Shown: positions 683-64,000, counted from the stretch's first letter. The stretch is 64,000 bases of DNA from Filimonas sp. (GCA_017306865.1 JAFKHH010000017.1:35453-99452); one strand, 5' to 3'. The notes: generated by a model from the sequence alone, not told the origin. Numbers and translations: made by a program.

Positions 683-3600
683 ATGTATTTTGATCAATAC
701 AAACTATCTCTAATGAAAAGCAAACTACTAGCACTATCCTGTACTGTTCTCTCGTTCACTACATCGTTTGGACAATCGAAAGACACCACGTTCAAAGCTC
801 AATGGAAAGAAATAGATTCCCTGATCTACAAAGCCAGTCTGCCAAAGACAGCAGAAACAAAAATTGATGCCATATATCAGCAGGCGACCGCACGCAAGAT
901 CCAGTCACAGGTCATAAAAGCTGTATGGTATAAAGTAATACTGCGCAGCGGGCTGACGGAGAAAGGAACACGGGCAAGTCTTGACCTGCTGCAAAAAGAG
1001 ATTGACAAAACCACCTCGCCTGTTGCCTTAAGTGTGCTGAAAGTAATGCAGGCGAAAGAGTATAACAAATACTACCAGCAAAACAGGTGGAACCTGGGGA
1101 ACCGCACTAATACAACAGAAAAAAGTGGTGCTGACTTTACTGCATGGACAGAAAATGATTTCCGCAATACGATCAGTAAATTATACAACCAGGCTTTAGC
1201 CAACGAAAGCATACTAAAGCATACGTCCTCCAATGTGTATGGCAGCATTCTTACAGATACCTTCAACCTGCGCAACCGTCCTACTATGTACGACGTAATT
1301 GTTCGTGACAACATAGATTATTACAAGCAGGCATTGGGCTACTACAACAGGACCATCACAGACTCTGTAACACTGGGTACTACACCAGTCTTTCTTGCAA
1401 AAACTTTTTCATTAGACAATGAGAGCCAAACTGCAATTGCAAAATTGCTGCAACAGCTTTTAGCATTTCATGAAAAAGATGCAGACAAAAACATTTTTGC
1501 ACTCACTGATATAGACAGGCTAAGCTGGTTTTACCAGTCTGTTTCTTTTGAAAATAAAGAAATGACTTACAGGGCATCGCTACAATACCTGGCAGAGCAA
1601 TATTCAAATACAGCGGCAGCAGATATGGCTTGGTATCTTATAGCAAGTCGCATGGTAAACGATGGCACATCAAAGTATGACCCGCTTGGCGATACTACGC
1701 ACAGGTACGATCTTGTAAAAGCAAAGCAATTACTGGAGGAAAAAATTGCCAAAGCAAAAGATAGCGATGGCAAACGAAATATGCAGGCGCTCCTTCGCTC
1801 TATACATGAAGAGAACTTACAAACGCAGATTGAAAAAGTTAATGTCCCGAACAAACCTTTTCGTTTATCGCTACAATACAAAAACGTAGACACCTTATTT
1901 ATCCGCATATTTAAAGTCCCTACTGTCTTAAAGGCTGAGGAAGATTATGATGCTACTGCCAATAAAAAAATATTAAAACAGGCTCCGTACAAAACATACT
2001 ATCAAATACTGCCACAAACAGGCGATTACCAAAACCATCGCGTAGAATTAAAAGTGGATGCCTTACCGGCAGGCTCTTATGTGCTAGCCGGATCAAATGG
2101 CAACAAGTTCGACTCTACAAATTTTATTGTACGCCAGAACTTTTCTGTATCTGCAATCAGTTATATACAGAACAACAAAGACTACTTTGTACTTAACCGT
2201 GAAAGTGGCCAGCCGCTGAAGAAAGTAAAAGTAAAAGGCAAACAATCTACCTGGAACGCAGACAAAAACAAATACACTTATTCAGATCTCTTTACAGATG
2301 AAACCGATGATAAAGGTTACTTCAGGGTAAATAATTATACAAATGGCAGGGATGTGATCTTAGGTTTTATAATGCCAGGCGACACATTGCAACTACAGCA
2401 GGTACAATACTATTACACAACAGAAAAAAATACGGCAAAATCTGAATACCAGGACATCTATTTTTATACGGACAGAGGCATTTACCGTCCTGCACAAACT
2501 GTATATTTCAAAGGGATCATCGTAGTCCGGGACAGGAACAACATTGCTGACCCAGCCTTATACAAATCGAAAGACAGCGTTACCGTACTCCTGCAAAATG
2601 CAAACAGGATACAGATTGATTCTATCCGTTGTGCAGTAAATGAATTTGGCGCTATTTCCGGCAAGTTCAAACTGCCAGCAAACACGATGACGGGGTCTTT
2701 TTCTTTGTCAACAAAAACCGCCTATAACAGTACGTTCTTTTCTGTAGAAGAATACAAAAGGCCAACCTATTCCGTATCGTTTGATACGCTTAGCAAACCA
2801 TACAAATTAAACGACAGCATTACAGTTACAGGCAAGCTGATGTCTTATGCACAAGCTGCAGTTAATGGCGCTGATCTAAAATATACAGTTACGCGTAACA
2901 CCCGCTACCCGTACCCCTGGCTTTTCAGGAACGCATACGTTCCTTACAGCCGGAGTGAGCAAGTAGCCGCAGGTACTGCAAAGAGTAATGCGGACGGTAC
3001 GTTTAGCATCAGCTTCAAAGCTATTCCCGATAACGCTGCAGACAAGAAGAATGACCCTGTATTTAATTACAGCATACAACTAACTGCAACAGATGCAAAT
3101 GGCGAAACAAGAGAAGGCAGCATGACTGTAAGGGCCGCATACAAAGCCTTTGAATTAGAAATGAATGTTCCTGCCTGTATAGAGGCACGGGATTTTAAAC
3201 AGATAGCGGTTACTACACAGAATATGGCTGGTAAAAAAGTACCTGCACAGGTTACCATCAGCGTATATCCGCTGGAAATGCCTGCAACATATGTAAGAAC
3301 ACGGCTTTGGCAAAGACCTGACCTGTATATCTTAGATAAGGCGAACTACAAACAATTGTTTCCGCACGATGAGTATGACAACGAAAGCGATGAGAAAACA
3401 TGGCTGCGCAAACCTGCAGTAGTACAAAAGACGATTAACACTGCCAATACAGATTCTGCAGCCCTGGACAAACAACCCGATGCCGGCTATTACATCATTA
3501 CTGCATCTGCAAAAGATGAGAGCGGCGTAGAGATCAGGGATGAGCAACTGGTAAAAGTGTACAACACCAATAGCCCTTTGCTAGACATACCGGCGTACTC

Positions 3601-6600
3601 CTGGAATGATAATTCGTCCAGGCAGGTAACGGATAAAGATTCTGCCAATGTAACCATTGGCTCATCTGCACCTGATGTTTTCATTATCACCAAATTTTCC
3701 AACAGTGATAAATATGAATTTTATACGCTGAACAATAGTAAAAAAACAATTAGCAGGAAGATTCAGCAGAAAGATAAGGGTATAGACCTGCTATATGCGT
3801 TTGTGAAAGACAACCGCCTATATCAGCAGTCAATGTCTTTTAGCAGATCACTTAAAGAAAAGGCATTAGACATTACGTATCATACGTTCAGAAATAAAAC
3901 ACTGCCAGGAGCCAAAGAAACATGGTCGGTAAACATCAAAAACAATAAAGGGGAAAAAGCAAATGCAGAATTGCTGACGGCAATGTACGATGCATCTCTC
4001 GACCAGATAACTGGGATGGAATGGCGCACGCCTTATATATGGAATTACCCTGGCGCCTATGCTTACTGGAACGCTGGCGATAATTTTTCCGCAGGCTATG
4101 GCGCAGTAGAATATAATCCAAACCTGCAATTTTTTAATTTCTCTCACGACATGAACGCTGACGTTGTCGTTGCCGGCTACGCCAGCAAGAACTTGCGATT
4201 AAAAGCAGCCCCTGCACCAACTGTACAAGCTGATAATATAAGTGAAGAGAAAGTAATGGCTCAGGATCTTAACGGATCTGGGTCGAAAGTACTTATAAGA
4301 GGCGCTTCATCACTCTCTGGCGCAGCTCCGCTATATGTAGTAGACGGAGAGCTGCGGACAGATGCCAATGTATCGCCGGATGATATTGCCTCTACTACTG
4401 TTTTGACCGGAGCACAGGCTGTTGCCTTGTATGGCTCCCGTGCCAACAATGGTGTAATTGTAATAACAACCAAAGGAGGCGGAAAAAATGCAACACAAAC
4501 AATTCGTAAAAATTTTAACGAAACTGCATTCTTTTTCCCGGCTGTGCATGCAGATACTGCCGGTAATTATACCATCTCCTTCACCATGCCAGAGGCACTA
4601 ACGCAATGGAAATGGATGTCTCTTGCCCATACAAAAGACCTGGCGTTTGGTTATAACCAAACACTCGTAGTAACACAAAAAGAATTGATGGCACAATTAA
4701 ACCTGCCACGATTCCTGCGCAATGGAGATAAAATAGAATTGAGCGCGAAGATCAGCAACACAGGCAGCAAAGAATACACCGGCCAGGCACACATACAGCT
4801 CATTAACCCGGAAACGAATCAGCCGCTGGATGGATTATTCCAGAATGTATTCCCAGACCAGTATTTCACTGTTGCTGCCGGGCAAAGCAGCGTGGTGAAG
4901 TTCCCTGTTTCTGTTCCGTACAATTTTACACAACCCGTAATTGTGCGTGTAACTGCTGCATCGGGAGATATGAATGACGGAGAAGAATACACATTACCTA
5001 TTCTGTCTAACAGGATATTGGTTACTGAATCGCTTCCATTTCTTGTAAAAGGCGACACCACTGCGCACTTTACTTTTACCAAACTAGCAAACACACAAAG
5101 CGAAACATTAAAAACACAAAACCTTACAGTAGAGTACACGCCTAATCCTGTTTGGTCTGCAATACAGGCATTACCATACTTATCTGAATACCCTTATGAA
5201 TGTGCAGAGCAAACATTCAACAGGTTTTATGCAAATGCACTGGCGTCTTATATAGTGAAGAAAAATCCTGCACTGAAAGCAGTCTTTGATCAGTGGCAGA
5301 AAGATACTACAGCTTTACAAAGCCCACTGGAACAAAATCCGGAGCTGAAACAAATATTATTGCAGGAAACCCCTTGGGTATTGGCAGCAGGCAATGAAAC
5401 ACAGCAACGCAAAAATATAGCCATGCTGTTCGATATTGCAAAGATGTCCGGTAACCTGAAATCTACTATTGACAAGTTGAAAGCGATGCAACTGCCAAGC
5501 GGTGGTTTCCCCTGGTTTAAAGATGGACGTGAAGACAGGTATATTACACAATACATTTTAACAGGCATCGCACGACTGACCAGGTTGAATGCCATACCTG
5601 CGGACCAGGCAAGTGACCTCCAAAATATATCCACAAAAGCATTGCAATATGCAGACAAGGAAATGAATGGAGAATATGACAGGTTGATAAAAAATAAAGC
5701 CGATCTCAAGTCAAATAATCTTAGCTCCTTCCAGGTTCAGTATCTGTACATGCGTAGCTACTTTAGTAACCCGGTACAAGTAAAAACTGCCTACAATTAT
5801 TATTACCAGCAGGCAATGCAATATTGGCAAAGTCAAAGCAGCTATATGAAAGCAATGATCGCATTTGCTTTGCTGAATACAAACCAGGAAACTTTTGCAC
5901 TTTCAAGAGTGATCCCTTCCATAGAAGAGAATGCTGTAGAAACAAAAGATAAAGGCATGTATTGGAAAGATGCACAATATGGCTACTACTGGTACAATGC
6001 ACCTATTGAGCAACAGGCACTGCTGATAGAACTAGCAAAAGCGGCCGTAGCAAAACAAGCGGGTAATAAGTTCGGCAACAAGGCGCAGGACATGTTAACA
6101 TGGCTCATATTGCAAAAGCAAACAAACAATTGGAAAACGACAAAAGCAACTGCTGATGCATGCTATGCTTTGCTGCTAGACAATAAACTATCTGCACAAA
6201 ACAGAACGGCAACTATACAGCTAGGCAACTATACAGTAGCCGGCGCTACAGGAAAACAAACTGCGGGCAGCGGTTATTTTAAAACAACAATCGGCGGTGA
6301 AAAAGTGCAGCCATCTATGGGCAATATTACAGTAACCACTACTGGCGGTGCTAACAATAGTATCTCCTACGGAGCAGTGTACTGGCAATATTTTGAAGAT
6401 ATAGATAAAGTAACGCCTTCATCCTCCCCATTGTCTGTAAAAAAACGTTTGTTTATCGAAGACAACACAGGAAAAGAAAAAGTGCTGAAACCTGTGGCAG
6501 AGAACCAGGAATTGAAAGCCGGAGACAAAATCACAGTGCGTTTGGAATTACGCAGCGATCGTGATATGGAATACATACACCTGAAAGATATGCGCGCTGC

Positions 6601-6847
6601 AAGCATGGAGCCAGTAAACGTACTCAGCAGTTATAAATGGCAGGATGGGCTGGGCTACTATGAGGCAACAAAAGATGCAAGCACCAACTTCTTCTTCAGC
6701 AATATCCGCAAAGGCACGTATGTATTTGACTATTCATTGTATGTAACACATACAGGCACGTTCAGCAGTGGCATTGCAACAGTACAATGTATGTATGCGC
6801 CGGAGTTTACCAGCAATAGTGAATCTATAAAAGTAAATGTGAAGTAG
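683..6847 (+). CDS. alpha-2-macroglobulin family protein (large secreted thioester-type protein). The true start may be the Met at 713.
   Basis: 2054-aa ORF with an N-terminal signal peptide (MKSKLLALSCTVLSF). Thioester-type motif YPYECAEQTF. Overall size and composition fit a bacterial A2M with MG domains. An internal SusC-like TonB-box/plug motif is present: IRGASSLSGAAPLYVVDG...ALYGSRANNGVIVITTKGGG. Confidence 0.8.
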   Translation: MYFDQYKLSLMKSKLLALSCTVLSFTTSFGQSKDTTFKAQWKEIDSLIYKASLPKTAETKIDAIYQQATARKIQSQVIKAVWYKVILRSGLTEKGTRASLDLLQKEIDKTTSPVALSVLKVMQAKEYNKYYQQNRWNLGNRTNTTEKSGADFTAWTENDFRNTISKLYNQALANESILKHTSSNVYGSILTDTFNLRNRPTMYDVIVRDNIDYYKQALGYYNRTITDSVTLGTTPVFLAKTFSLDNESQTAIAKLLQQLLAFHEKDADKNIFALTDIDRLSWFYQSVSFENKEMTYRASLQYLAEQYSNTAAADMAWYLIASRMVNDGTSKYDPLGDTTHRYDLVKAKQLLEEKIAKAKDSDGKRNMQALLRSIHEENLQTQIEKVNVPNKPFRLSLQYKNVDTLFIRIFKVPTVLKAEEDYDATANKKILKQAPYKTYYQILPQTGDYQNHRVELKVDALPAGSYVLAGSNGNKFDSTNFIVRQNFSVSAISYIQNNKDYFVLNRESGQPLKKVKVKGKQSTWNADKNKYTYSDLFTDETDDKGYFRVNNYTNGRDVILGFIMPGDTLQLQQVQYYYTTEKNTAKSEYQDIYFYTDRGIYRPAQTVYFKGIIVVRDRNNIADPALYKSKDSVTVLLQNANRIQIDSIRCAVNEFGAISGKFKLPANTMTGSFSLSTKTAYNSTFFSVEEYKRPTYSVSFDTLSKPYKLNDSITVTGKLMSYAQAAVNGADLKYTVTRNTRYPYPWLFRNAYVPYSRSEQVAAGTAKSNADGTFSISFKAIPDNAADKKNDPVFNYSIQLTATDANGETREGSMTVRAAYKAFELEMNVPACIEARDFKQIAVTTQNMAGKKVPAQVTISVYPLEMPATYVRTRLWQRPDLYILDKANYKQLFPHDEYDNESDEKTWLRKPAVVQKTINTANTDSAALDKQPDAGYYIITASAKDESGVEIRDEQLVKVYNTNSPLLDIPAYSWNDNSSRQVTDKDSANVTIGSSAPDVFIITKFSNSDKYEFYTLNNSKKTISRKIQQKDKGIDLLYAFVKDNRLYQQSMSFSRSLKEKALDITYHTFRNKTLPGAKETWSVNIKNNKGEKANAELLTAMYDASLDQITGMEWRTPYIWNYPGAYAYWNAGDNFSAGYGAVEYNPNLQFFNFSHDMNADVVVAGYASKNLRLKAAPAPTVQADNISEEKVMAQDLNGSGSKVLIRGASSLSGAAPLYVVDGELRTDANVSPDDIASTTVLTGAQAVALYGSRANNGVIVITTKGGGKNATQTIRKNFNETAFFFPAVHADTAGNYTISFTMPEALTQWKWMSLAHTKDLAFGYNQTLVVTQKELMAQLNLPRFLRNGDKIELSAKISNTGSKEYTGQAHIQLINPETNQPLDGLFQNVFPDQYFTVAAGQSSVVKFPVSVPYNFTQPVIVRVTAASGDMNDGEEYTLPILSNRILVTESLPFLVKGDTTAHFTFTKLANTQSETLKTQNLTVEYTPNPVWSAIQALPYLSEYPYECAEQTFNRFYANALASYIVKKNPALKAVFDQWQKDTTALQSPLEQNPELKQILLQETPWVLAAGNETQQRKNIAMLFDIAKMSGNLKSTIDKLKAMQLPSGGFPWFKDGREDRYITQYILTGIARLTRLNAIPADQASDLQNISTKALQYADKEMNGEYDRLIKNKADLKSNNLSSFQVQYLYMRSYFSNPVQVKTAYNYYYQQAMQYWQSQSSYMKAMIAFALLNTNQETFALSRVIPSIEENAVETKDKGMYWKDAQYGYYWYNAPIEQQALLIELAKAAVAKQAGNKFGNKAQDMLTWLILQKQTNNWKTTKATADACYALLLDNKLSAQNRTATIQLGNYTVAGATGKQTAGSGYFKTTIGGEKVQPSMGNITVTTTGGANNSISYGAVYWQYFEDIDKVTPSSSPLSVKKRLFIEDNTGKEKVLKPVAENQELKAGDKITVRLELRSDRDMEYIHLKDMRAASMEPVNVLSSYKWQDGLGYYEATKDASTNFFFSNIRKGTYVFDYSLYVTHTGTFSSGIATVQCMYAPEFTSNSESIKVNVK

Positions 6848-51737: not shown

Positions 51738-52286
51738 ATGGCCACGCTTATCAAACTGGTAAGAGGTAAACACATTGTGGAATTCGACACGGGAAAATTC
51801 GACAATTGGTGTGTCTTTCTTACCAGGGAAAACCAATATCGCTATGCCCCCAAAGACCTGGAATATTATGCTTTGCTAAAAGCACTTGCGCGCACGCACG
51901 GGCATGAGAAGATCTATAACGACTTCCTGGCGCTTTATGAATGCACCGGCAGTAATATTGACGCTGCAGTATCTGAGCAGATCACAACACTTGCCAACAC
52001 ATATACTACCGACGCAGAAGAGGCTGACACATGGTTTACCATTATCTATGGCAACATGGTTGCGGAAGAGAATAAACCGCGTGCTATGCTGAAGAAGAAA
52101 ATAAAACGGTTAGCCATGCACTTGTTGCTGATAGAAGATACAGCCCCGCAGGATGTGGTGAACTTCTGTAAAGGAAAATCGTGGAGGGAGCTACAACATA
52201 TTATGCAAGAAAAGGGGTTGCTGGCTTTACTTTTCATAATTGGATACGAGGAGTTCAAATATCTCACCCCGTTTGGATGGAACTGA
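51738..52286 (+). CDS. hypothetical protein (182 aa), convergent with the Dam gene and overlapping its 3-prime end by 60 nt
   Basis: Protein-like composition. No family recognised. Confidence 0.45.
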   Translation: MATLIKLVRGKHIVEFDTGKFDNWCVFLTRENQYRYAPKDLEYYALLKALARTHGHEKIYNDFLALYECTGSNIDAAVSEQITTLANTYTTDAEEADTWFTIIYGNMVAEENKPRAMLKKKIKRLAMHLLLIEDTAPQDVVNFCKGKSWRELQHIMQEKGLLALLFIIGYEEFKYLTPFGWN

Positions 52287-53138
52287 ATTGATGGCACGCT
52301 TAGCCCTCACCCTGTCTATGTACATATTTTCCTGGGAGAATAGCTCATCAAAGAAGTTGTCCTCCGGGTCTATATTCTTCGGATCAGAATTACTGAGCAG
52401 CCATTTTGCATCCGCACCGGTAAGGTCGTTACAGAAATCCCGCAGGCGTATTTGTTCCGTATCATCAAACACACTATTTGCATACGCATTGAAAGAAGCC
52501 GTCTTGCTGATAGGCTTATATGGCGGATCAAGATAGTAGAAACAATTTCCATCTGCATACGCAAGCGTTTGCGCGTAGTCACCCTGGAAGACAGTCACTT
52601 TTCTAAGCACTTTATGCACTGCCAGTATCTTTCGCGTATCGCAGATGTTGGGCTTGATATACCGGCCAAAAGGTACATTAAAAACATTCTGGCTGTTTAC
52701 ACGATACAGGCCATTGAAACATGTCTTATTCAAAAAGATGAAATGCGCAGTCCTTACAAGCGTATCCATCGGCGTAAAATTATAGGCGTCCCTTTTTTCA
52801 AGATAAAGCGACAAGCGCTGCTCATTGGAGCGGCACGCATAATAAGCCTCATGAAAGCCTGATAAGATCTTCAGTAAATTTTCCGGCTCTGCTTTTATAA
52901 CAGCATATGCATTGATAAGATCTGTATTTACATCACTAATAACGGCGCTCTTTACTGAAGGGAATTGCTGCAGGAACCAAAACATAACAGCGCCACTTCC
53001 AATAAAAGGCTCTACATAAATCAGATCGGAATTACTGCACACTATGCCAGGTAATGCAGTGTGTATAGAAGAGATAAGTTGCCCTTTGCCCCCAGCCCAC
53101 TTCAGAAAAGGTTTAGCTTTCGTTGCTGTCGCGTACAT
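52227..53138 (-). CDS. dam: DNA adenine methyltransferase (Dam / D12 class N6-adenine MTase), orphan
   Basis: N-terminal FLKWAGGKGQL motif I and catalytic DPPY (YYLDPPYKP). No cognate endonuclease gene seen. Confidence 0.85.
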   Translation of the reverse strand: MYATATKAKPFLKWAGGKGQLISSIHTALPGIVCSNSDLIYVEPFIGSGAVMFWFLQQFPSVKSAVISDVNTDLINAYAVIKAEPENLLKILSGFHEAYYACRSNEQRLSLYLEKRDAYNFTPMDTLVRTAHFIFLNKTCFNGLYRVNSQNVFNVPFGRYIKPNICDTRKILAVHKVLRKVTVFQGDYAQTLAYADGNCFYYLDPPYKPISKTASFNAYANSVFDDTEQIRLRDFCNDLTGADAKWLLSNSDPKNIDPEDNFFDELFSQENMYIDRVRAKRAINSVPSKRGEIFELLVSNYEK

Positions 53139-53239
53139 TCTTGATAAGCAGTATGTGTTTACAATTTTAGGTATTCGCATGCGAATAAAAAAAATTGCTT
53201 TCAGATCGAAACGCAAGCTGGGCGCGGATTCTGATCAAA

Positions 53240-54349: not shown

Positions 54350-55738
54350 CTACCAGCTATCTGTTCTGAACGGGTAGGCAGGCAAGCCTTCTGTGTTATA
54401 CAGGTTACCCGGCGCATAATCTTTAAATCCATAGCGAACAGCAACAGGTGTTTTCACCTGCTCGCTTAGTAAGACAATTCCTTTACCTGTTATATTGGCT
54501 TTTGCAGGATAGAATATTTTATCTGCGCCAGCTACTTCAAATGATATAAGCTCTTTGCCAAAGGCAGTATAACCAAACGTGGCGTTATCAAACGCAACGG
54601 TAACAGTATCTTTATTTACCTGCATCGTTTTATAGACCGGCCCTTTATAAGCAATTCCTTTTTTACCATAATCATTTGCAAGTGCCCAATACAGCAAACG
54701 CCTGGCAACAGTTGTTTTGTCTGATGGATGAATTGTCTTACTGCTACCTATATCAATCGTAGCAGCCATGCCACTGTTTGGTATTAACGCCATGGATGCA
54801 AATTGTTTTTCCTGCAATACAGGCACAAGCTCTTTACTATCCGCATAGTTAAACGGTGCTATTTGCACATAGTAAAAAGGCCAGTTGCCGGCATCCCACA
54901 GCTTACGCCATATAGACACCAGCGCTTCCATTTTCTTATCGTAGGCAAATGGGTTCTTGCGATTGTTCTCTCCCTGGTACCAAAGCGTGCCTTTAATAGT
55001 GTAACCAACTATGGGGTTTATCATGGCATTGAACAACACTTGCGGATCATTCTTACCGATCTTTGCCGTATCAGCAGGGCGCTTAAAATCATTAAACGGT
55101 TGCAGGCTTGTTGTTGTCATCCATGCTTCTATATCTGTACCGCCGTATGCGGATTGGATCACGCCTACTGGTACGTTTAATTTTTCCTGTAGCATACGGG
55201 CAAACTGGTAACCAACTGCACTAAACTCTTTTACATTAGCAGCATTTGCTTCTTCCCATTTACTATCCATTTTTGTCAATGGAGTTTTGGACATATTCTT
55301 TTCTATCCGGAATAGTCTTATGCCTGGCTTATCTGCATCCAGTAATATATCGTTTGAATTCAGGATAGGCTGATTACTGAATCCGCGTACCGGCATTTCC
55401 ATATTGGACTGTCCTGAACATAACCACACTTCACCGATCAATACGTTTCCAAGTACTTTCTTTTCGCCATCGTTAAATGTGATTTTGTAAGGGCCACCGG
55501 CTACTGGCGTTTGCACGCGCGTTTTGAAATTACCTTCAGCAGTTGTTTTAATCGTGTACGTTTTATTATTCCACGAAGTGGTAATAGTCATCGATGCATT
55601 CTTTTTTGCATTCCCCCACAGCAATACTTGCGATTGCTGCTGCAATACCATATTATCGCTGATAACAGCAGGCAGTTCTACGTTTGCAAAAGAGATACAG
55701 GTTATAAAAAGAAGCAAGAAGGATAGGCTATATTTCAT
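54350..55738 (-). CDS. sialate O-acetylesterase (SASA/SGNH family)
   Basis: Signal peptide. LCSGQSNM catalytic Ser motif and DxxH-like C-terminal block. Located in the sialic-acid locus. Confidence 0.8.
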   Translation of the reverse strand: MKYSLSFLLLFITCISFANVELPAVISDNMVLQQQSQVLLWGNAKKNASMTITTSWNNKTYTIKTTAEGNFKTRVQTPVAGGPYKITFNDGEKKVLGNVLIGEVWLCSGQSNMEMPVRGFSNQPILNSNDILLDADKPGIRLFRIEKNMSKTPLTKMDSKWEEANAANVKEFSAVGYQFARMLQEKLNVPVGVIQSAYGGTDIEAWMTTTSLQPFNDFKRPADTAKIGKNDPQVLFNAMINPIVGYTIKGTLWYQGENNRKNPFAYDKKMEALVSIWRKLWDAGNWPFYYVQIAPFNYADSKELVPVLQEKQFASMALIPNSGMAATIDIGSSKTIHPSDKTTVARRLLYWALANDYGKKGIAYKGPVYKTMQVNKDTVTVAFDNATFGYTAFGKELISFEVAGADKIFYPAKANITGKGIVLLSEQVKTPVAVRYGFKDYAPGNLYNTEGLPAYPFRTDSW

Positions 55739-55768
55739 AAAAGTTATTTCATTTATTTAAAAAATATA

Positions 55769-55850
55769 TTGCTCGCGGAAAACGCAGAAACCGCGGAATT
55801 AGTTTCTGCGTTTTCCGTGTTTTCTGCGAGAGAAATATCGCAAAGAATGC
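55769..55850. repeat. repeat family 4 copy immediately upstream of the esterase start
   Basis: ttgctcgcggaaaacgcagaaaccgcggaatt agtttctgcgttttccgtgttttctgcgag. Confidence 0.7.
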
Positions 55851-55887
55851 GGATTAACAATTCAACCATTAAACAATTCAACAATCC

Positions 55888-58461
55888 TCAAATTTTCAAA
55901 TTCTCTTTCTTCCCCACTAAGCTCACCACATACGCCACTACCACACAAATTACAATCGCAAATACAGGATATAAAAAGAAACTTACGTTGGTTGCGGATT
56001 GTATGAAGTAAAGGCTAATTGCGCTGACAAAAAATCCTGTAAGCACACCTACACTGTTTATGCGGGGAAAGAAGATGCCCGCAACAAACATTCCTGCAAG
56101 GCAACCACCAAACAACCCGATTATTTTCAGATACTGATCCCAGATAGAAGCATTGCTTAGATACACCAGGTAGATGGCGATGCAGCATCCCAGCAAGCCA
56201 AGCACAAAAGTTGTCCATCGCGCAAAACGGAACCGCTGCTGATCGGTGCTTTGTGGCTTTACTGATTGATAAAAATCTGTAGTCACCACCGTTGCTATGG
56301 AGTTCATGCTGGAACTGATCGTAGACATAGTAGCTGCGAATAACCCGGCAATGACCAGCCCGGCTAACCCTGCGGGCAACTGCTGTGAAATGAACCAGGG
56401 AAAAATATCATCCGTATGCCCATGCGGATCAAGTTGCGCGGGATTGTGCCTGAAGTACACCCACAAGGCTGTGCCTACGCTAAAGAAGATGAGTGAGGCT
56501 GGTATAACCAATATTGCATTTGTATAAATGGATTGTCTTGCTTCTTTTTCTGTAGCTGTTGTAAGGTAACGTTGTACTACTACCTGGTCTGAAGAATAGG
56601 TTACGAGCTGGGTAAGAAACCCGCCAACAAACACAACCCACAACACCGGCTGTGTAAAACTCCATCCGAGTGTAGCCACACGCAATTTATCATGCGACAC
56701 GGCTTCTGAGAAAAGTGTACCCCAGCCGCCATTAATGGAGTGCGCAATAAAGAACAGGCTCAGCAATGCACCACCCAGCAATACCCCTACCTGCATTACT
56801 TCTGTCCAGATCACGGCTTCTATACCACCGGACACGCTATACGCTGTAGTAATTAAACTAGTTCCTATAATGCAGACAAATATATTGATACCGGTAACTG
56901 TACTTAGTACCAATGCAGGTAAATAAATAACAATACCCAGGCGGCTAACCTGGAACAATACAAAATTCACGCTGCCCAATAATTTCACTTTCGCATTGAA
57001 ACGTATATGTAAGTATTCGTAAACGCTGGTAAGCTTTAACTTCCTGAAGTAGGGCAGGTAAAAATAAACGATGATAGGCGCGACTGCAACGATCATCATA
57101 TTGCTTAAAAAATAAACCCAATTGGTAGCATACGCTTTTGCAGGAATAGCAATGAAGGTTAGCGCGCTAAGCTTGGAACCGAAAATACTTAAACCCGCAG
57201 CCCACCACGGTATCTTGCCACCACCCAAAAAGAAATCGCTTGTTGTACTTTTCATTTTGCGCGACACATACACACTAATACTTACGAGTAATACAAAGTA
57301 GAGTGCAAGCACAGACCAGTCAAGCCATTTGAATGCGCCTCCCGGGTGTACAGGTGTAGCCATTAGCACACGCGGGGTACGTGTTGCGGGCCTTGCTTCG
57401 CCTGAAGGAATTACTACATTACCATTCCATACGACTAGTGGTGTGGTGACGGGGGACCAGGTACTTGCAACAGGATTATCTGCGGCATCGCTTTTCCTGT
57501 CTGTAAATACACGCCCCATATCCGCCCATGATTCAGTAATGGTATTGAATGCATAGATCGTAGCAGAAAAACCGGGATGACTATTCTTTAAAGAATCATT
57601 TTGCAAAAAATATTGCCCGTTGTCTCCACCGAAAATGAGCAACTGCGATTGCCCTGCATTGTACGCAGGTGTAGGGGCAGCCGTTACTGGTTGCGGCAGA
57701 TCCGGCAGCCTGCTCCAACCAGTAACAGGAGAATATTTGTAAGCATCTTTTAAATATTCCCGTTGTATTTTCCCCTGTGCATCTGTGTGTAGATGCGCAC
57801 CGCTGAATAAATAAAAATTACCATCCTGCACGCCTGTAATGCTCAGCATACGTGATGGCCCGGGCCATGATGGCAGTGTATTCCAGGCACGTGTGACTTT
57901 CGGCGTAATAAGATTGAGCGATAAAAAATAATTATGTGCAGTATCTGTTGCAGACTGTACGCCTCCCGCTATGTATAATGTATTGCCTGCAATAGCACCG
58001 GACGCATTTGCTAAAGGAAATGGCAGTTCGGGCAATTCTTCTGTTGTGATTTTCCCTTGCTGATAGCGAAGTATAAAAGCAGCGCTATAATATTTTTCCG
58101 CATCGTTGCCGCCAATACAGATTACGCCATCTTGCCAGGTAAGCGATATACCATAAGCCAGTGGATGTGGCAACATACCAGCTTGTTTCCACTGTGCCTG
58201 TGCATTTTCCAATACATATATGTCACTATAGTATGTTTTAGTGCCGCCTGTCCATGGCGCACCGGCAGGAAAGTTGGCGCCTCCGGCAAAAAGCAATGCA
58301 CTATTGCTCACACCGGCAAATCCACCGGCGAACCCAACATTGCCAGGTAGTGGTGGCAGTTGCGTCCATTTAAAATATTGCGGAAGGGAGTCGTTGGCAA
58401 ATGTGGTATTTGCTGCAACAAGTGTGTATAAGGTAATGAGGAAAAACAAATACTTTTTCAA
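55888..58461 (-). CDS. fusion protein: N-terminal NanM-like (Kelch-repeat) N-acetylneuraminate mutarotase plus C-terminal sodium:solute symporter (SSS family, sialic acid transporter-like)
   Basis: Signal peptide and Kelch-type repeats (LLFAGG, ICIGG, LYIAGG, YLFSG, LLIFGG) for about 390 aa, then 13-14 TM helices with SSS-type motifs. Confidence 0.75.
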   Translation of the reverse strand: MKKYLFFLITLYTLVAANTTFANDSLPQYFKWTQLPPLPGNVGFAGGFAGVSNSALLFAGGANFPAGAPWTGGTKTYYSDIYVLENAQAQWKQAGMLPHPLAYGISLTWQDGVICIGGNDAEKYYSAAFILRYQQGKITTEELPELPFPLANASGAIAGNTLYIAGGVQSATDTAHNYFLSLNLITPKVTRAWNTLPSWPGPSRMLSITGVQDGNFYLFSGAHLHTDAQGKIQREYLKDAYKYSPVTGWSRLPDLPQPVTAAPTPAYNAGQSQLLIFGGDNGQYFLQNDSLKNSHPGFSATIYAFNTITESWADMGRVFTDRKSDAADNPVASTWSPVTTPLVVWNGNVVIPSGEARPATRTPRVLMATPVHPGGAFKWLDWSVLALYFVLLVSISVYVSRKMKSTTSDFFLGGGKIPWWAAGLSIFGSKLSALTFIAIPAKAYATNWVYFLSNMMIVAVAPIIVYFYLPYFRKLKLTSVYEYLHIRFNAKVKLLGSVNFVLFQVSRLGIVIYLPALVLSTVTGINIFVCIIGTSLITTAYSVSGGIEAVIWTEVMQVGVLLGGALLSLFFIAHSINGGWGTLFSEAVSHDKLRVATLGWSFTQPVLWVVFVGGFLTQLVTYSSDQVVVQRYLTTATEKEARQSIYTNAILVIPASLIFFSVGTALWVYFRHNPAQLDPHGHTDDIFPWFISQQLPAGLAGLVIAGLFAATMSTISSSMNSIATVVTTDFYQSVKPQSTDQQRFRFARWTTFVLGLLGCCIAIYLVYLSNASIWDQYLKIIGLFGGCLAGMFVAGIFFPRINSVGVLTGFFVSAISLYFIQSATNVSFFLYPVFAIVICVVVAYVVSLVGKKENLKI

Positions 58462-58470
58462 GCTAAAACT

Positions 58471-59418
58471 TTAGTGCGTTTGAAGAGTGGTTTTCTTTAT
58501 CTCATGCCTGCATTTATCTACTATACTAAAGAAGTGAACCTGCTCAAGCATACTTTGTAATTTATTCGAGTCCGCCTCACTCAGGCTTTGCAACGGCAGG
58601 CGACATGCGCCAAGATCAAACCCGATCATTTTCATTATTGCGCGTTGCGCAGGTATGGGCGAGAACTTTACGAGACACCGTACCATTTCTACAGAAGCTA
58701 ACTGCATCTTTCTTGCTTCTTCATGTTCATCATTATTATAATGCGCTATTACCTGCTGGTATAATGGTGCGGCGAAGGTATAGGTACTGCCGATAGCGCC
58801 TTTTGCGCCTACAGCCAATGCGCTTAACAACAGCTCGTCATAACCAAAGAGAATATCGTACTTACCGTTTTTGTAATTAAGACATGCCTGGTATTCATGA
58901 ATAGTAGCGGCGGTATATTTAATACCCGCCAGGTTAGGTATTTTCTCTTCAGCCAATTGCAGAAACTCTACCATATCCATAGCCACATTTGTTAGCGCCG
59001 GAATGTGATAATAGTAAAAAGGCATAGACGGCGCAGCCGATGCAATTTGTGCAATACTATCTACGAGGTTCTGCACAGATGATGGCTTAAAGTAAAATGC
59101 AGCAACAGAGGAAATAGCATCTGCACCAATTCTTACCGCATGTGCGGCAAGCCGTTGAGACTCGTGTATAGAAGTATGCCCTACATGTACAAATACAAGC
59201 AATCTTTTATTTGCTGCTTTTACATAGGCTTCTGCTACCGTCATTCTTTCTTCCACAGTCAGGTTCGGCCCTTCACCATTGGTGCCACAGATAAAAACGC
59301 CTGCCAGTTTATCTTCCACTAGCTTGTTTACAATACCGGGTATTGCATCCAGGTCCAGCGAACCATCTTTTTTAAACGCGGCGAACGTAGCCGCAACTAA
59401 TCCTTCAATCTTTATCAT
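58471..59418 (-). CDS. nanA: N-acetylneuraminate lyase (DHDPS/NAL family)
   Basis: GVFICGTNGEGPNLTVEER schiff-base-enzyme N-terminal motif. Located in the sialic-acid locus. Confidence 0.75.
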   Translation of the reverse strand: MIKIEGLVAATFAAFKKDGSLDLDAIPGIVNKLVEDKLAGVFICGTNGEGPNLTVEERMTVAEAYVKAANKRLLVFVHVGHTSIHESQRLAAHAVRIGADAISSVAAFYFKPSSVQNLVDSIAQIASAAPSMPFYYYHIPALTNVAMDMVEFLQLAEEKIPNLAGIKYTAATIHEYQACLNYKNGKYDILFGYDELLLSALAVGAKGAIGSTYTFAAPLYQQVIAHYNNDEHEEARKMQLASVEMVRCLVKFSPIPAQRAIMKMIGFDLGACRLPLQSLSEADSNKLQSMLEQVHFFSIVDKCRHEIKKTTLQTH

Positions 59419-59550
59419 TGTTCACTCTTTATATTTAAAATCCTGTAAGCATTAAAATTGTTATATGGTTCTATTGTTTAATTGTTATGATCGCAACAGA
59501 AGAAAAACCATTTAACAATTTGACCATGCAGCCATGTATTGCTTCGTGAT

Positions 59551-60687
59551 TTATTTAAATAAATTCTCCTTCCTAAATCTTTTCAACATCAACGTATAAT
59601 TCCAGTCTTTGCCGTCGTTGGTTTCGTAGAGGCAATAGATCGTACCATCGGGCGCAACAGTTACATCAGAGTACCCGGCGGCTCCGGCAGCTAATACTTT
59701 CTGCACAGGCCATGTTTTACCTTCGTCATAACTAAGTTTTGCCACAAGGTTCCTGCGCGGATTTTTAGGAATATCCCTGCTATCAGGATTGATGAAGAGT
59801 AATGCGTTCTTATTATTTTTCAGCGGCACTTTAATAATGCTTGCCATACAAACCGGGTCAAACAATGCAGTATCATACACGGGCTTCGACCAGTTGCTAA
59901 TGCCATCGGGACTGTACAGTATGCCACGCCTATGTACTGGTGAACCTGTACGTATATTCAGCATAACACTACCGTCGTTTAATTGTACCGCCATGTTCTC
60001 ATTCGGATTTTTAAACTCGGGTGTGTTGTCTGCTGCGATCACACCGTTGTTCCATGTCTTTCCATTGTCATCACTATAGATGGTTGCTATAGCGCTGGGG
60101 CCGTGGCTACGACGCGGCTGTAACTTATCCGAATCAGCTAACCAAACAGAAGCAAGCAGTCGGCCGTTTTTCAATTGTATAGCATGCCCCGGGCCTGTTG
60201 CTAACACCTTCCAATTATAGGTGGGTTTGAATCTGTCAAACGTCGCAGTAATGTCTTCTGCTACAGACCACGTAAGTCCGTCATCTGTCGATTGTGTGTG
60301 ATAGGCGCGCGCATAATCCCGCTGATAGAGCAAATGGATTGTACCATCTGCCGCAACTACCGGCGCAGGGTTACCGGCAGGCTCGCCTGCTTTCTTTGCT
60401 GCAATAATTTGATATTCGCCCCATGTCTTACCACCATCTTCACTTCTTCGTAGCAAGAGGTTCATATCGCCCCAATCGCTGGCATTGTTGATACGGCCTT
60501 CGCAGAAGGCAAGCAATGTCCCTTTCTTTGAGATAACCAATGCGGGTATGCGCATAGAGGCATATTCACCGGCTTTAGGTGCAAAGACAATAGTGCTGTC
60601 AACATTTGTTACTGTTGCAGACTGCTTTGTTGTTTTACAACCGAATAGAGAAAGAATAATTCCTATAAATATTATTTGCTTCATCAT
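59551..60687 (-). CDS. exo-alpha-sialidase (BNR/Asp-box repeats), lipoprotein
   Basis: Lipobox LFGCK. Asp-boxes SEDGGKTW, STDDGLTW, SDDNGKTW, YDEGKTW. Start trimmed to the MMKQ at 60687. Confidence 0.8.
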   Translation of the reverse strand: MMKQIIFIGIILSLFGCKTTKQSATVTNVDSTIVFAPKAGEYASMRIPALVISKKGTLLAFCEGRINNASDWGDMNLLLRRSEDGGKTWGEYQIIAAKKAGEPAGNPAPVVAADGTIHLLYQRDYARAYHTQSTDDGLTWSVAEDITATFDRFKPTYNWKVLATGPGHAIQLKNGRLLASVWLADSDKLQPRRSHGPSAIATIYSDDNGKTWNNGVIAADNTPEFKNPNENMAVQLNDGSVMLNIRTGSPVHRRGILYSPDGISNWSKPVYDTALFDPVCMASIIKVPLKNNKNALLFINPDSRDIPKNPRRNLVAKLSYDEGKTWPVQKVLAAGAAGYSDVTVAPDGTIYCLYETNDGKDWNYTLMLKRFRKENLFK

Positions 60688-60699
60688 ATTATATGTTTC

Positions 60700-60812
60700 A
60701 CGCAAAGGTGGAAAGTATCGCAAAGGCCGCAAAGAAAACTGGGAAATGGCGCTCGCGGAAAGCGCGAAAAACGCGGAATTATTTTTCTGCGTATTCTGTG
60801 TTTTCAGCGAGC
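60700..60812. repeat. repeat family 4 copy immediately upstream of the sialidase start
   Basis: tatcgcaaaggccgcaaag...gctcgcggaaagcgcgaaaaacgcggaatt atttttctgcgtattctgtgttttcagcgagc. Confidence 0.7.
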
Positions 60813-61744
60813 ATATTTTTTCCAAAAAATTCCGGTAATATTTCTCTTGCCTTATGCCTCACACCTTCTATATTCTCTTCACCAATGCTTTTATACGGCC
60901 ATCTTAATCGCGGTGAGACAGTTGCCCATCCGCCTACGGCAGCCATAAATTTATCTACAGCCTGGTTCGCATATCCCTGCTGTACTATGTAAGGTACGAT
61001 ACATGCATGCATGAATTGCTGAATGCGGCTTTGCAGTTCCAACGCTTTTTCCATGTCGCATTGCATCAGATCATACCAGCGCTGTGCGGCCAGCGGATGT
61101 AAGCAGGCAACATTGGAATAGGCACCATGTGCCCCATACTGATACCCTGTTGCTAAATGATGCCCTGGTATAAACACAGACAATTGCGAAAACAAAGGTT
61201 GCATATCTTCATACCATTGCTGATCGCCTCCTGCTACTTTGCACCCAACCAGTTTTACATGTTTCATTATTTCACAAAAATCTTCCGGCTGCAATTTTAC
61301 TTTTGCATGTGGTGGATTGTACAAGACCAATCCTATATCTCCTGCCGCATCCTGTATGCGTTGCAGGTAATCTATGATCTCCGGCATGGTTGGCGGAAAC
61401 CAATCGGGCAGAATTATTTGCATGGCACCTGGCTCCAATTGTTTTATCCTGCGCACGCGCTCCAGGGACACAATGGGACTGGTGTGGTTGCATCCAACTT
61501 GAAAAGGCATATTTGCCGCATTACACTTTTCTGCAAGTAACTGGCTTACGTGATCAAACTCCTGTTCTGTCTGGTTGTAAAACTCCCCTGCTGTTCCGTT
61601 GGAGTAAATACCATTTACCTTATACGCAATCAGTATGTCGATCTCATCGGACAATGCTTTGTAATCGATGCTATCATTTGGATTAATGGGCAACAGGAGC
61701 GTTGCCCAATTTCCATATATCTGGCTGCTTGTAAGCGATTTCAT
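60779..61744 (-). CDS. second DHDPS-family (dihydrodipicolinate synthase / NAL-like) aldolase. The predicted C-terminus runs into the repeat element, so the true stop may lie further upstream.
   Basis: YGNWATLLLPINPNDSIDYKALSDEIDILIAYKVNGIYSNGTAGEF is the DHDPS-family N-terminal signature. Confidence 0.65.
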   Translation of the reverse strand: MKSLTSSQIYGNWATLLLPINPNDSIDYKALSDEIDILIAYKVNGIYSNGTAGEFYNQTEQEFDHVSQLLAEKCNAANMPFQVGCNHTSPIVSLERVRRIKQLEPGAMQIILPDWFPPTMPEIIDYLQRIQDAAGDIGLVLYNPPHAKVKLQPEDFCEIMKHVKLVGCKVAGGDQQWYEDMQPLFSQLSVFIPGHHLATGYQYGAHGAYSNVACLHPLAAQRWYDLMQCDMEKALELQSRIQQFMHACIVPYIVQQGYANQAVDKFMAAVGGWATVSPRLRWPYKSIGEENIEGVRHKAREILPEFFGKNMLAENTEYAEK

Positions 61745-61758
61745 ATTTATAGTTTATA

Positions 61759-61790
61759 TCTCGCGGATGCCGCAGAAAACGCAGCACTTT
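61759..61790. repeat. repeat family 4, partial copy
   Basis: tctcgcggatgccgcagaaaacgcagc. Confidence 0.5.
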
Positions 61791-62981
61791 TTACTTAAAG
61801 TAGTTAAGGGAATAACTTTCGAAACGGATCAGTTCATACGGGTTTACCTGGCCTGTTTCGTAAGTAATACCAATAAGTGTATCAGAAACTATTGCTATAT
61901 CGGAATAGGCTGACTGACCTGTGTTTACCACAAATCGTTTAGCCCATGTTTTGCCGTTGTCTTTACTGGTAGAGATCGACATGTTTACACGTGTGGTACT
62001 GGCATCGTTGGAGAAGAACAGCAGGTAATTGTTGTTATAATTCGCTCCCAGCAAACTGCCTTGGGATACCGGGTCTACCAGTGCGTATTCTCCTTGCACC
62101 GTAGCCCATGTAACGCCCCCATCTGCACTCAGAGAGGATACACGAAAGCTTTTACCGGAGCAACGGCTATTGAGCAGTAGCTTTCCGTCAGACAGTTCTA
62201 CTACTGTTGATTCATTGGGTGTAAATGCACCGGGGTCGGCAACGTTGCCCATTTGCCATGTAGCACCATGATCGTCGGAGTAGATCATATAAGCAGATTG
62301 TTTTCTCTTAGTTGCATCTTTATTTGCTTCTATAAAGCAGGATGGCACTACTAATCTTCCTGCATTCGTTCCTTTAGTTAGTTGTATGCCGTGGCATGGG
62401 CCTGTCGAGATCCAGCCCCACTCAGGTTTAGTAGTAGTGGCAGATACATTTGTTGGCGTTGCCCATGTAACGCCGTCGTCAGAAGAGCGTGTTACATATA
62501 CTCTGCGTGGCACGCCTGTACCGTTGTTAATAGCGCCTATATCATCCGAACCGCGATTCCATGACATCACTAATATAATATCGCCTGTACTTTGGTCTAC
62601 AATTGGCACCGGGTTGCCACAGGTGTTCGTTCCATCATCCCATACCTTAATCGTCTTGCCCCATGTAACGCCATTATCGGTTGATCTTTTTACTACAAGG
62701 TCTATATCTCCATTATCCGCACAGCTATTTTTTCTTGCTTCTGCAAAAGCCAGCAATGTTCCGGTCTTTGTTTTCACAATAGCAGGTATTCTGAAACAGC
62801 TATAGCCTTCGGTGCTTTTTGTAAAGATGTTTACCTTCTGTGTTGCGGGCTGATCTGGTGGCGCAGCAGTTGGTGGTGGCGGAGGCGGCGGGCCTTCTAT
62901 ACTTGGTTTGCAGGAGCAGATGATCACACTTGCAGCCATTGCAAGCGACACGATGTTTATAATAAATGATTTTTGTTTCAT
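61791..62981 (-). CDS. BNR-repeat exo-alpha-sialidase-like glycosidase, lipoprotein with a Pro-rich linker
   Basis: Lipobox (IICSC), linker PPPPPPPTAAPP, Asp-boxes STDNGVTW, SSDDGVTW, SDDHGATW, SADGGVTW, SKDNGKTW. Confidence 0.75.
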   Translation of the reverse strand: MKQKSFIINIVSLAMAASVIICSCKPSIEGPPPPPPPTAAPPDQPATQKVNIFTKSTEGYSCFRIPAIVKTKTGTLLAFAEARKNSCADNGDIDLVVKRSTDNGVTWGKTIKVWDDGTNTCGNPVPIVDQSTGDIILVMSWNRGSDDIGAINNGTGVPRRVYVTRSSDDGVTWATPTNVSATTTKPEWGWISTGPCHGIQLTKGTNAGRLVVPSCFIEANKDATKRKQSAYMIYSDDHGATWQMGNVADPGAFTPNESTVVELSDGKLLLNSRCSGKSFRVSSLSADGGVTWATVQGEYALVDPVSQGSLLGANYNNNYLLFFSNDASTTRVNMSISTSKDNGKTWAKRFVVNTGQSAYSDIAIVSDTLIGITYETGQVNPYELIRFESYSLNYFK

Positions 62982-63004
62982 ACTATACTATTCATTTTCG
63001 TGGA

Positions 63005-64000
63005 TCAGAATTGCGGGTAACCTTGTGTTTGTTTAAGATTTGCATTCAGGCTGTACATAGAGCGGCTGATCGGGAAATAGAGCGGAATAGTTTTCCCTCT
63101 CAGGTTAGGTACTTCTGTATAGGCATCGATCGTACCGGCACTATGAAAGCGGACTATATCAGGCCAGCGCTTTAATTCTGCATACAATTCGCGAAAGCGT
63201 TCGTCAAATATTTCACGCTCTACAGATTGCTTATCGGCTGCACCGGTATATTTACCCGTACCTGCTCTTGCTCTTATTTTTTCCAGTTCTATAACAGCAT
63301 CTGCCGGTTGGTTAAGGGCAGCTAACGCTTCGGCACGTAGCAAGATCAGTTCGCCCAGCCGGTAAAGAATAATGTCGCAGTCAAATGCACGTCCATCGTT
63401 GTATAAAGTTCCTTTTAGTTTATTGTCAAATACACCTACGATAGAACCATCTGCCCGTACGCCTTTGATAATGGAAGCATTTTTACGTACATCAGCAGCA
63501 TTCACATTAAAGGTTGCTTCCAGCTTTGCGCTTGGCGAATACTGGCTGCGTGCTGCGGTTTCTGCATAAGGAATGCTTGCCTTATTCACCGCGTCATTTA
63601 CAAGTGGCCCGTTTGGTTTGAGGTAATAACCGTAGCTGTTGTTGTATTCATCTTTTTGAAAATAGATCGACATCACTACTTCACTATTGTTACGGTTGTC
63701 TGTTGCATAGATTCTGTTGAAGTCTGACTGTAGTGAAACAGACGGAATAGCTTTATCCAATGCGGCTATGGCATCTTGCAGATCGGTAGCGTTTCCCTTC
63801 TGCACTTTTGCTTTCCAGATCAGCGCATCTGCTTTCAATGCATACGCTGCCGGTTTGGATGCGCGGCTTTTATTTACAAAGCCTGTCTCTGGAAAAAGGT
63901 CGATTGCGGCGTTTACATCTTTTATTACCTGCGCCATTACTTCACTTGCTGTTGAGCGTGGCAGCAAAGGCTGATCGTCAGATTCTGTAGGTTGTAATAC
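63005..64000 (-). CDS. SusD/RagB family nutrient-binding outer-membrane lipoprotein (C-terminal part; the gene continues beyond the window)
   Basis: C-terminal SusD-like signature (...LILLRAEALAALNQPADAVIELEKIRARAG...) ending ...KQTQGYPQF. Its position in the sialic-acid locus also fits. Confidence 0.75.
   Translation of the reverse strand, partial: VLQPTESDDQPLLPRSTASEVMAQVIKDVNAAIDLFPETGFVNKSRASKPAAYALKADALIWKAKVQKGNATDLQDAIAALDKAIPSVSLQSDFNRIYATDNRNNSEVVMSIYFQKDEYNNSYGYYLKPNGPLVNDAVNKASIPYAETAARSQYSPSAKLEATFNVNAADVRKNASIIKGVRADGSIVGVFDNKLKGTLYNDGRAFDCDIILYRLGELILLRAEALAALNQPADAVIELEKIRARAGTGKYTGAADKQSVEREIFDERFRELYAELKRWPDIVRFHSAGTIDAYTEVPNLRGKTIPLYFPISRSMYSLNANLKQTQGYPQF

Follow-up and report, generated by a model that had tools for sequence, protein, structure and literature searches.

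The gene cluster described here lies in a 64,000-nt window (the whole stretch of DNA that was analyzed) from Filimonas sp. (JAFKHH010000017.1:35453-99452), where it occupies positions 54350 to 64000 on the minus strand and appears to serve the use of sialic-acid-type sugars. Open reading frames (ORFs) and Pfam/NCBIfam profile matches bore out the identities, places, and order of the seven genes that had been named from the DNA alone (hereafter the sequence-only reading), with domain E values far beyond chance. In the direction of transcription, the window holds the C-terminal 331 codons of a SusD/RagB outer membrane glycan-binding lipoprotein (63005..64000, ending at the window end; PF07980, 5e-21, and PF14322), followed by sialidase A (SiaA; 61791..62981), a 396-aa lipoprotein of the exo-sialidase type of glycoside hydrolase family 33 (GH33) with a BNR_2 match of 4e-40, a lipobox, and a PPPPPPP linker. 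Next come DHDPS2 (60779..61744; PF00701, 7e-22), a cytoplasmic 321-aa member of the dihydrodipicolinate synthase (DHDPS) family that belongs to a divergent, NanA-like family of class I (Schiff-base) aldolases; a second GH33-type exo-sialidase lipoprotein, sialidase B (SiaB; 59551..60684; BNR_2, 3e-32); and NanA1 (58471..59418; PF00701, 8e-53), a 315-aa sialic acid pyruvate lyase of the N-acetylneuraminate lyase (NAL) type. SiaF (55888..58461) is a single ORF of 857 aa with matches to both NANM/Kelch (5e-33) and SSF (1e-45): its N-terminal part (aa 1 to 375; 57337..58461) consists of a putative signal peptide and a six-bladed Kelch mutarotase of the NanM/YjhT type, predicted to be periplasmic (TIGR03548, 1e-41), and its C-terminal part (aa 376 to 857; 55888..57336) is a SiaT-type Na+:sialic acid symporter domain (PDB 5NV9, 3e-105). 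The series closes with a SASA-family (NanS-like) sialate O-acetylesterase (54350..55738; PF03629, 1e-20), a protein with a signal peptide and, at residue 109, a GQSN block.

A SusC gene had been guessed to lie just outside the window, and this was confirmed by a public contig (L001) that is identical to the window and runs further past its end. On this contig, the SusD gene extends approximately 453 nt past the window end, giving a full-length protein of 482 aa, and is preceded by a 1,080-aa SusC, beyond which lies a divergently transcribed GntR/FCD regulator. The region studied is the distal two thirds of an approximately 14-kb SusC/SusD-type polysaccharide utilization locus (PUL) for sialic-acid-type sugars, and its host belongs to the Chitinophagaceae and is Filimonas-like. 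Full-length SusD scored 183 bits on the NanU model NF033072, whose cutoff is 425, and is placed in the general SusD family rather than in NanU; SusD proteins from the canonical class of loci (see below) reach ∼295 bits on the same model. The longest ORF of SiaB begins at a TTG at 60825, overlapping the inside of the preceding DHDPS2 gene, while the ATG at 60684/60690, which gives the lipoprotein signal MKQIIFIGIILSLFGC and agrees with the gene call on the public contig, is the true start. Pfam annotation revealed no NanE, NanK, or ROK genes elsewhere in the window, and NanE-II, the N-acylglucosamine 2-epimerase that converts N-acetylmannosamine (ManNAc) to N-acetylglucosamine in the Bacteroidota pathway, was also missing from the public contig.

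The fusion of mutarotase and symporter claimed by the sequence-only reading proved to be real. Within SiaF, the NANM/TIGR03548 match spans residues 28 to 365 and the SSF/TIGR00813 match residues 410 to 812; two assemblies made independently contain the same 857-aa ORF, and its full-length homologues, which number more than 100 and share 59 to 98% identity with it, come from Chitinophagaceae, Mucilaginibacter, Spirosoma, Larkinella, and other taxa. Many related loci carry an unfused NanM and a separate transporter of the major facilitator superfamily (MFS) or the family of sodium:solute symporters (SSS), which would suit a frameshift or an assembly join of two genes; such an artifact is ruled out by the two assemblies and by the full-length homologues in many genera. 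The N-terminal 375 residues form a cyclically permuted YjhT/NanM propeller, SiaF residues 143 to 363 aligning with residues 3 to 217 of YjhT (PDB 2UVK) and SiaF residues 20 to 143 with YjhT residues 219 to 350. In this alignment, E355 and R361 of SiaF fall on E209 and R215 of YjhT, which we take to be the catalytic residues of the NanM mutarotase; the mutation of Glu209/Arg215 in YjhT reportedly abolished mutarotase activity in the 2008 work of Severi et al. The Kelch domain of SiaF thus keeps the NanM residues, as do 97 of the 100 fused and unfused NanM domains collected, and it scores 143 bits, below the curated NanM subfamily cutoff of 243.

The N terminus of SiaF, MKKYLFFLITLYTLVAANTTFA-ND, resembles a signal peptide as judged by eye, and the predicted topology agrees with the proposed order of a periplasmic mutarotase followed by the transporter. 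The C-terminal 480 residues match residues 6 to 473 of SiaT, the symporter of P. mirabilis for N-acetylneuraminic acid (Neu5Ac). The carboxylate-binding residues S60, T63, and R135 of SiaT are kept in the alignment, while T58, F78, G81, Q82, and F243 differ. The domain is predicted to transport a sialic acid. Fusions of NanM with SSS transporters have been described and named SiaF (Severi et al. 2021, Microb Genom, PMC8461474), with a leader peptide, NanM on the outside, and, in the ST5/SSS clade, an SSS domain of 13 transmembrane helices with N-out topology. As a headline feature, the fusion has been known since 2021 and is not new, and no experimental work on SiaF after 2021 was found in the literature searched.

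Two further kinds of fusion were observed among the relatives. Five proteins of approximately 1,170 to 1,240 aa from Puia, Flavitalea, and metagenomes (P0056, P0067, P0095, P0104, and P0111) are triple fusions, in which NanM comes first, then a SiaT-like SSS domain, a single additional hydrophobic helix, and, at the C terminus, a GH33 sialidase with 44 to 46% identity to SiaA. The extra helix would put the sialidase back in the periplasm, so that release, anomerization, and import would be combined on one polypeptide; Severi et al. (2021) make no mention of such mutarotase/transporter/sialidase proteins. In addition, a third, very divergent NanM::SSS fusion, with 30% and 39% identity to the two domains, was found in Pedobacter sp. 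BS3 (L004:4246-6939) upstream of a class I lyase (see below); a Lys replaces SiaT Arg135 there, and several other binding positions are altered.

Both sialidases of the window find their best PDB match in the sialidase of M. viridifaciens (1EUR), with E values of 1e-38 for SiaA and 8e-35 for SiaB. Five of the six catalytic residues of 1EUR (R68, E260, R276, R342, and Y370) are aligned in both proteins, and an Asp lies one position off the sixth (D92); the (F/M)RIP motif reads FRIP in SiaA, with five Asp-boxes, and MRIP in SiaB, with four. With a BNR propeller, the Arg triad, the Tyr/Glu pair, an acid/base Asp, the (F/M)RIP motif, and Asp-boxes, both are predicted to be GH33 exo-sialidases. The sequence-only reading had spoken of duplicated sialidases and duplicated DHDPS-family aldolases, and for each pair the presence of two family members stood, while the duplication did not. 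SiaA and SiaB are old paralogues rather than duplicates because they are only 34.5% identical, and the same holds for NanA1 and DHDPS2, which share 24% identity over 139 aa.

NanA1 matched the A. salmonicida NAL (5AFD) at 2e-67 in the PDB search. When aligned with E. coli NanA (the reference sequence being identical to PDB 3LBC), it keeps Lys165, Tyr137, Tyr110, Leu142, Thr167, Asp191, Glu192, and Ser208. At the position of E. coli Thr48 there is an Asn (N47) within the motif GTNGE, the other form of this carboxylate motif being GSTGE/GTTGE (Ser47-Thr48), and the motif G(T/S)NGEGPN recurs in 119 of 120 close NanA1 homologues. In E. coli NAL, the hydroxyl and amide of Thr48 bind the pyruvate carboxylate, and D191, E192, and S208 bind the sugar part (PMC3014015). 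Against the two curated NanA equivalog models, NanA1 stays below the cutoff (178 versus 281 bits and 140 versus 382 bits).

A pattern-limited, NanA1-based scan of species-representative genomes yielded at least 80 loci, and 81 loci, including that of the window, were compared after annotation by tblastn with the window proteins and by Pfam. These loci were divided into two classes. Class I comprises 31 loci, the window among them, whose lyases are at least 58% identical to NanA1 and carry the motif G[TS]NGEGPN[LM] with no exceptions; its core is SusC-SusD-SiaB-NanA1-NanM plus an MFS transporter or the SSS fusion, with SiaA and DHDPS2 being optional. SiaB orthologues (51 to 71% identity) occur in most class I loci, SiaB being the conserved core sialidase of this class and SiaA an accessory gene. 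Cultured bacteria with a class I locus include Chitinophaga pinensis (LR632930.1) and Olivibacter, and Chitinophaga sp. E66 (CP079103.1) has one as well. Class II, the canonical class, comprises 50 loci from Dyadobacter, Lewinellaceae, Pontibacter, a Sphingobacterium metagenome-assembled genome (MAG), and others; its lyases are 41 to 48% identical to NanA1 and carry the canonical motif GSTGEGVS, again with no exceptions, and its gene order is GntR-SusC-SusD-NanA-NanM(-SSS or +MFS)-SASA-...-sialidase. The replacements T48N and S53N, together with differences at positions 190 and 247, are fixed between the two lyase clades. Moreover, among the loci with full 10-kb flanks, NanE-II (PF07221) is present in 0 of 26 from class I versus 29 of 32 from class II, and DHDPS2 is found in 8 of all 31 class I loci versus 0 of the 50 class II loci. 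The fused transporters of both classes keep the equivalents of SiaT Ser60, Thr63, and Arg135, and they differ at SiaT positions 81 and 82, where class I has Ser, Asn, or Ala followed by Asn and class II has Leu followed by Leu, Met, or Gln. In SiaT, the pocket for the acetamido methyl group is formed by F78, G81, and F243, and positions 81 and 82 are beside it (PMC5931594).

Other genes accompany individual class I loci. In two loci (L009:9209-9988 and L030:8739-9518), one from Mucilaginibacter and one from Flavihumibacter, NanA1 and/or DHDPS2 has as its direct neighbor a 259-aa PhyH-family Fe(II)/2-oxoglutarate dioxygenase, the two copies being 81% identical to each other. In the class I loci of Larkinella and Spirosoma, a gene resembling acid-sugar dehydratases of the enolase superfamily lies just upstream of SusC (L018:1431-2558, with orthologues in L020 to L023 and L025); it scores below all equivalog cutoffs. 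In one Spirosoma locus (L021), DHDPS2 lies between this gene and SusC, and the two may form a lineage-restricted dehydratase/aldolase pair.

The sequence-only reading had proposed that the locus handles more than Neu5Ac. The argument from duplication does not support this, but a cargo other than plain Neu5Ac is supported by the lack of NanE-II, by T48N in the lyase, and by the polar pocket of the transporter. Because of these three features, the other fixed lyase changes, and the less NanU-like SusD, the cargo would be one that does not yield ManNAc. We would put it at slightly under even odds that the main substrate is 2-keto-3-deoxynononic acid (Kdn) or another sialic acid that is not N-acetylated. 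Among the sialic acids without an N-acetyl group at C5, Kdn is most plausibly the best candidate, since its cleavage gives mannose, for which no epimerase is needed, and since Kdn enzymes are known in Sphingobacterium. According to a review (PMC10017367), which draws on Nakagawa et al. (2022, Glycobiology 33:47), Iwaki et al. (2020), and Kitajima et al. (1994), Sphingobacterium has a Kdn-specific aldolase, whose specificity is set by residue 50 (Asp50), and Kdn-cleaving sialidases. When genes of a mannose pathway were sought beside the lyase as support for Kdn, only the dehydratase-like gene restricted to Larkinella/Spirosoma and the PhyH gene of two loci were found, neither of which is general.

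Several points weigh against a substrate of this kind. The absence of the epimerase was counted at the loci and their flanks, and this enzyme and a kinase could be encoded elsewhere in the genome; for the epimerase difference between the classes, the Fisher p value of 3e-13 overstates the support, the loci being phylogenetically non-independent. The polar residues of the transporter pocket would also suit N-glycolylneuraminic acid, and a sialate O-acetylesterase would be no less expected in a Neu5Ac locus. NCBIfam scores fail to split the two lyase clades, both of which lie below the cutoffs, NanA1 scoring slightly higher on the NanA model, and 5AFD, the best solved relative of NanA1, was deposited as an N-acetylneuraminate lyase. 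Going only by its number, residue 50 of the Kdn aldolase might be the counterpart of either NanA1 N47 or DHDPS2 N49, the latter being invariant. In the 2022 report of Nakagawa et al., that residue is said to be N50.

It is also conceivable, although we consider it unlikely, that class I loci are ordinary, redundant Neu5Ac loci, with sialidases for different linkages, a normal NanA1, and NanE-II plus a ROK kinase encoded elsewhere, for instance, in a canonical nan locus. Such an explanation is consistent with the close match of NanA1 to 5AFD and with its retention of all NAL sugar-binding residues except T48, with the similarity of the SSS domain to a Neu5Ac transporter, and with the SASA esterase and NanM, which are classic Neu5Ac accessories; both classes, moreover, occur within Pedobacter, Albibacterium, and Flavihumibacter, though in different species. 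However, it does not sit well with the complete lack of the epimerase in class I loci with full flanks compared with its near constancy in canonical ones, with the differences fixed between the lyase clades, or with the systematic difference in acetamido-pocket residues between the transporters of the two classes, and a self-sufficient second set of lyase, mutarotase, and transporter would be hard to explain for the same sugar.

The second aldolase-family enzyme, DHDPS2, falls under every NCBIfam equivalog cutoff, with 61 bits on the DapA model TIGR00674 (cutoff, 206) and 61 to 65 bits on the NanA models. A profile built from 24 members of its family finds NALs at 1e-18 to 1e-15, ahead of DapA at ∼1e-12. 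The identity of a housekeeping DapA, for which it could be said that PF00701 spans both DapA and NanA, is ruled out by these scores and by synteny with sialidases across genera; hence, the second aldolase is not a genuine DapA, in agreement with the sequence-only reading. Taken together with a SiaF fusion that is published, that is identical in two assemblies, and that has so many full-length homologues, this makes a trivial origin of the unusual features, whether from a housekeeping DapA or from a joined pair of genes, scarcely credible.

DHDPS2 represents an uncharacterized NanA-like subfamily. The Schiff-base Lys (K169) and Y142, the equivalent of Tyr137, are invariant, and the GxxGE scaffold is kept in the form GTAGE. 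Compared with E. coli NanA, DHDPS2 shows T48A, Y110W, and L142H, a gap and a His in place of D191/E192, and three inserted residues ahead of the region around Ser208. This His-rich swap at the glycerol-tail site suggests that the substrate may have a different, perhaps anionic, distal group. The subfamily is compact, with ∼74 representatives at E ≤ 1e-30 among 1.84 billion, and its signature xNGTAGEF / YNPPHAK / GxK / PGH holds down to ∼38% identity; a Filimonas sp. MAG contains an annotated protein that is 100% identical to DHDPS2. In all loci looked up, its context is a sialidase PUL. DHDPS2 adjoins SiaB orthologues in seven loci (L003, L007, L030, and L083 to L086), and two Pedobacter-like contigs carry the module DHDPS2-SiaB-NanA1(GTNGEGPNL)-NanM-MFS-SASA, to which the arrangement in Chitinophaga niabensis is similar. 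The PUL of Pedobacter heparinus has the order GntR-BNR-SusC-SusD-DHDPS2-SiaB and lacks a NanA1 within 10 kb. Because the adjacency of DHDPS2 and SiaB recurs in these Pedobacter-like contigs, C. niabensis, and P. heparinus, DHDPS2 is a specific partner of the SiaB sialidase; in the literature searched, no report connecting GH33 with DHDPS genes in PULs was found.

These features of DHDPS2 also bear on an alternative that we regard as improbable, namely, that the cargo is not a sialic acid in the strict sense but another ulosonic acid of bacteria or plants, such as 3-deoxy-D-manno-octulosonic acid (Kdo), 3-deoxy-D-lyxo-heptulosaric acid (Dha), pseudaminic acid, or legionaminic acid, with DHDPS2 as the dedicated lyase for one of them. 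The exchanged glycerol-tail residues and the P. heparinus PUL, in which DHDPS2 and SiaB stand without a nearby NanA1, are in line with it. In addition, several class I loci contain or adjoin genes for sulfatases, a GH106 rhamnosidase, a GH27 melibiase, and extra SASA esterases (L015, L028:7051-8520, L030:14527-16041, and L085:7537-9030, with GH106, GH27, and the extra SASA in L085 and L086), which suggests sulfated or complex, possibly non-animal, target glycans. Nevertheless, a nine-carbon sialic acid as the main cargo is indicated by NanM, by a SiaT-like transporter in which the carboxylate triad is conserved, and by a NAL whose glycerol-tail site is intact.

We therefore favor, with a probability of roughly 0.6 for the explanation as a whole, a real variant of the sialic-acid-type PUL with a SiaF fusion, for which a non-N-acetylated substrate is likely and Kdn is the best candidate. 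The sequences themselves establish which genes are present, their catalytic residues, the intactness of the fusion, and the two classes with their correlated differences. In the pathway that we infer, where the order of the steps, their cellular locations, and above all the substrate are conditional, SusC and SusD would capture sialylated glycans, from which the two lipoprotein exo-sialidases would free the sugar as its alpha-anomer, while the secreted SASA esterase would strip O-acetyl groups. The periplasmic NanM domain of SiaF would then convert the alpha- to the beta-anomer at the mouth of the attached SiaT-type Na+ symporter, which would import the sugar. In the cytoplasm, NanA1 would cleave it to pyruvate and a hexose, DHDPS2 may act on a related keto-deoxy acid, and the GntR/FCD regulator upstream of the locus would be part of the same system.

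A bolder version of this explanation, which remains doubtful, would make class I an undescribed class of Bacteroidota PULs devoted to Kdn or another non-N-acetylated sialic acid, with DHDPS2 as a new ulosonic acid lyase beside SiaB. The T48N lyase, the lack of NanE-II, and the polar-pocket transporter would then be the marks of the class, the triple fusions would join release, anomerization, and uptake, and the sugars could come, for instance, from actinomycete cell wall polymers, algae, or fungi. The type of PUL, the SiaF fusion, and Kdn-active enzymes from a related family are known already, while the split into classes I and II with its markers, the DHDPS2 family with its linkage to SiaB, and the triple fusions are not described in the literature searched. 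Work on sialic acid foraging has so far dealt almost wholly with Neu5Ac and with host-associated bacteria. Provided that the class split is functional, the lyase motif (GTNGE versus GSTGE), the presence or absence of NanE-II, and transporter positions 81 and 82 would be simple markers by which Neu5Ac loci could be told from those for Kdn or other sugars in environmental Bacteroidota. Moreover, the locus points to a NanA-like family with a very specific genomic partner and offers candidate Kdn-selective sialidases, lyases, and transporters for glycan synthesis and analysis.

The remainder of the window consists of housekeeping genes without further sialic acid genes. Outside the PUL, a gene for a D12-class N6-adenine DNA methyltransferase on the minus strand (52227-53216) and a DUF7004 gene on the plus strand (51738-52286) overlap tail to tail by ∼60 nt; the genes flanking this pair encode Mqo and an AHSA1 protein, and Pfam annotation there shows no restriction enzyme. 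At the other end of the window (683-6847), a 2,054-aa bacterial alpha-2-macroglobulin-like protein with MG2, A2M, and bMG10 domains is encoded.

Compared with known systems, the SiaF of the window resembles the published proteins (PMC8461474) in its putative leader peptide, its cyclically permuted NanM domain, its SiaT-like SSS domain, and its place in a nan-type cluster of Bacteroidota. It differs in that its subgroup goes with the noncanonical lyase and has S/N/A-N instead of L-L/M/Q at SiaT positions 81 and 82; Chitinophaga, Pedobacter, and Sphingobacteriaceae are not mentioned in that paper. The canonical Bacteroidota loci, i.e., the NanOU type of Tannerella and Bacteroides and the class II loci (L031 to L082), share with the window the GntR regulator, SusC/SusD, a sialidase, a NanA-family lyase, NanM, an inner membrane transporter, and the SASA esterase. 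Peculiar to them are NanE-II, the GSTGE lyase, and the more NanU-like SusD, whereas the window class has the GTNGE lyase, SiaB as its core sialidase, no epimerase, and optional SiaA and DHDPS2.

At the level of single enzymes, E. coli NanA (1NAL and 3LBC) and A. salmonicida NAL (5AFD) have the Schiff-base Lys, Tyr137, Thr167, Asp191, Glu192, and Ser208 in common with NanA1 and differ from it by T48N, while only the Lys, Tyr137, and the GxxGE scaffold are common to them and DHDPS2. The Sphingobacterium Kdn aldolase, compared here by its description in PMC10017367, comes from the same phylum (though another class), belongs to the NanA family, and has its key residue near GxxGE, where NanA1 has an Asn. 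The sole Sphingobacterium locus retrieved in the scan (L079) is of the canonical class, unlike that of the window.

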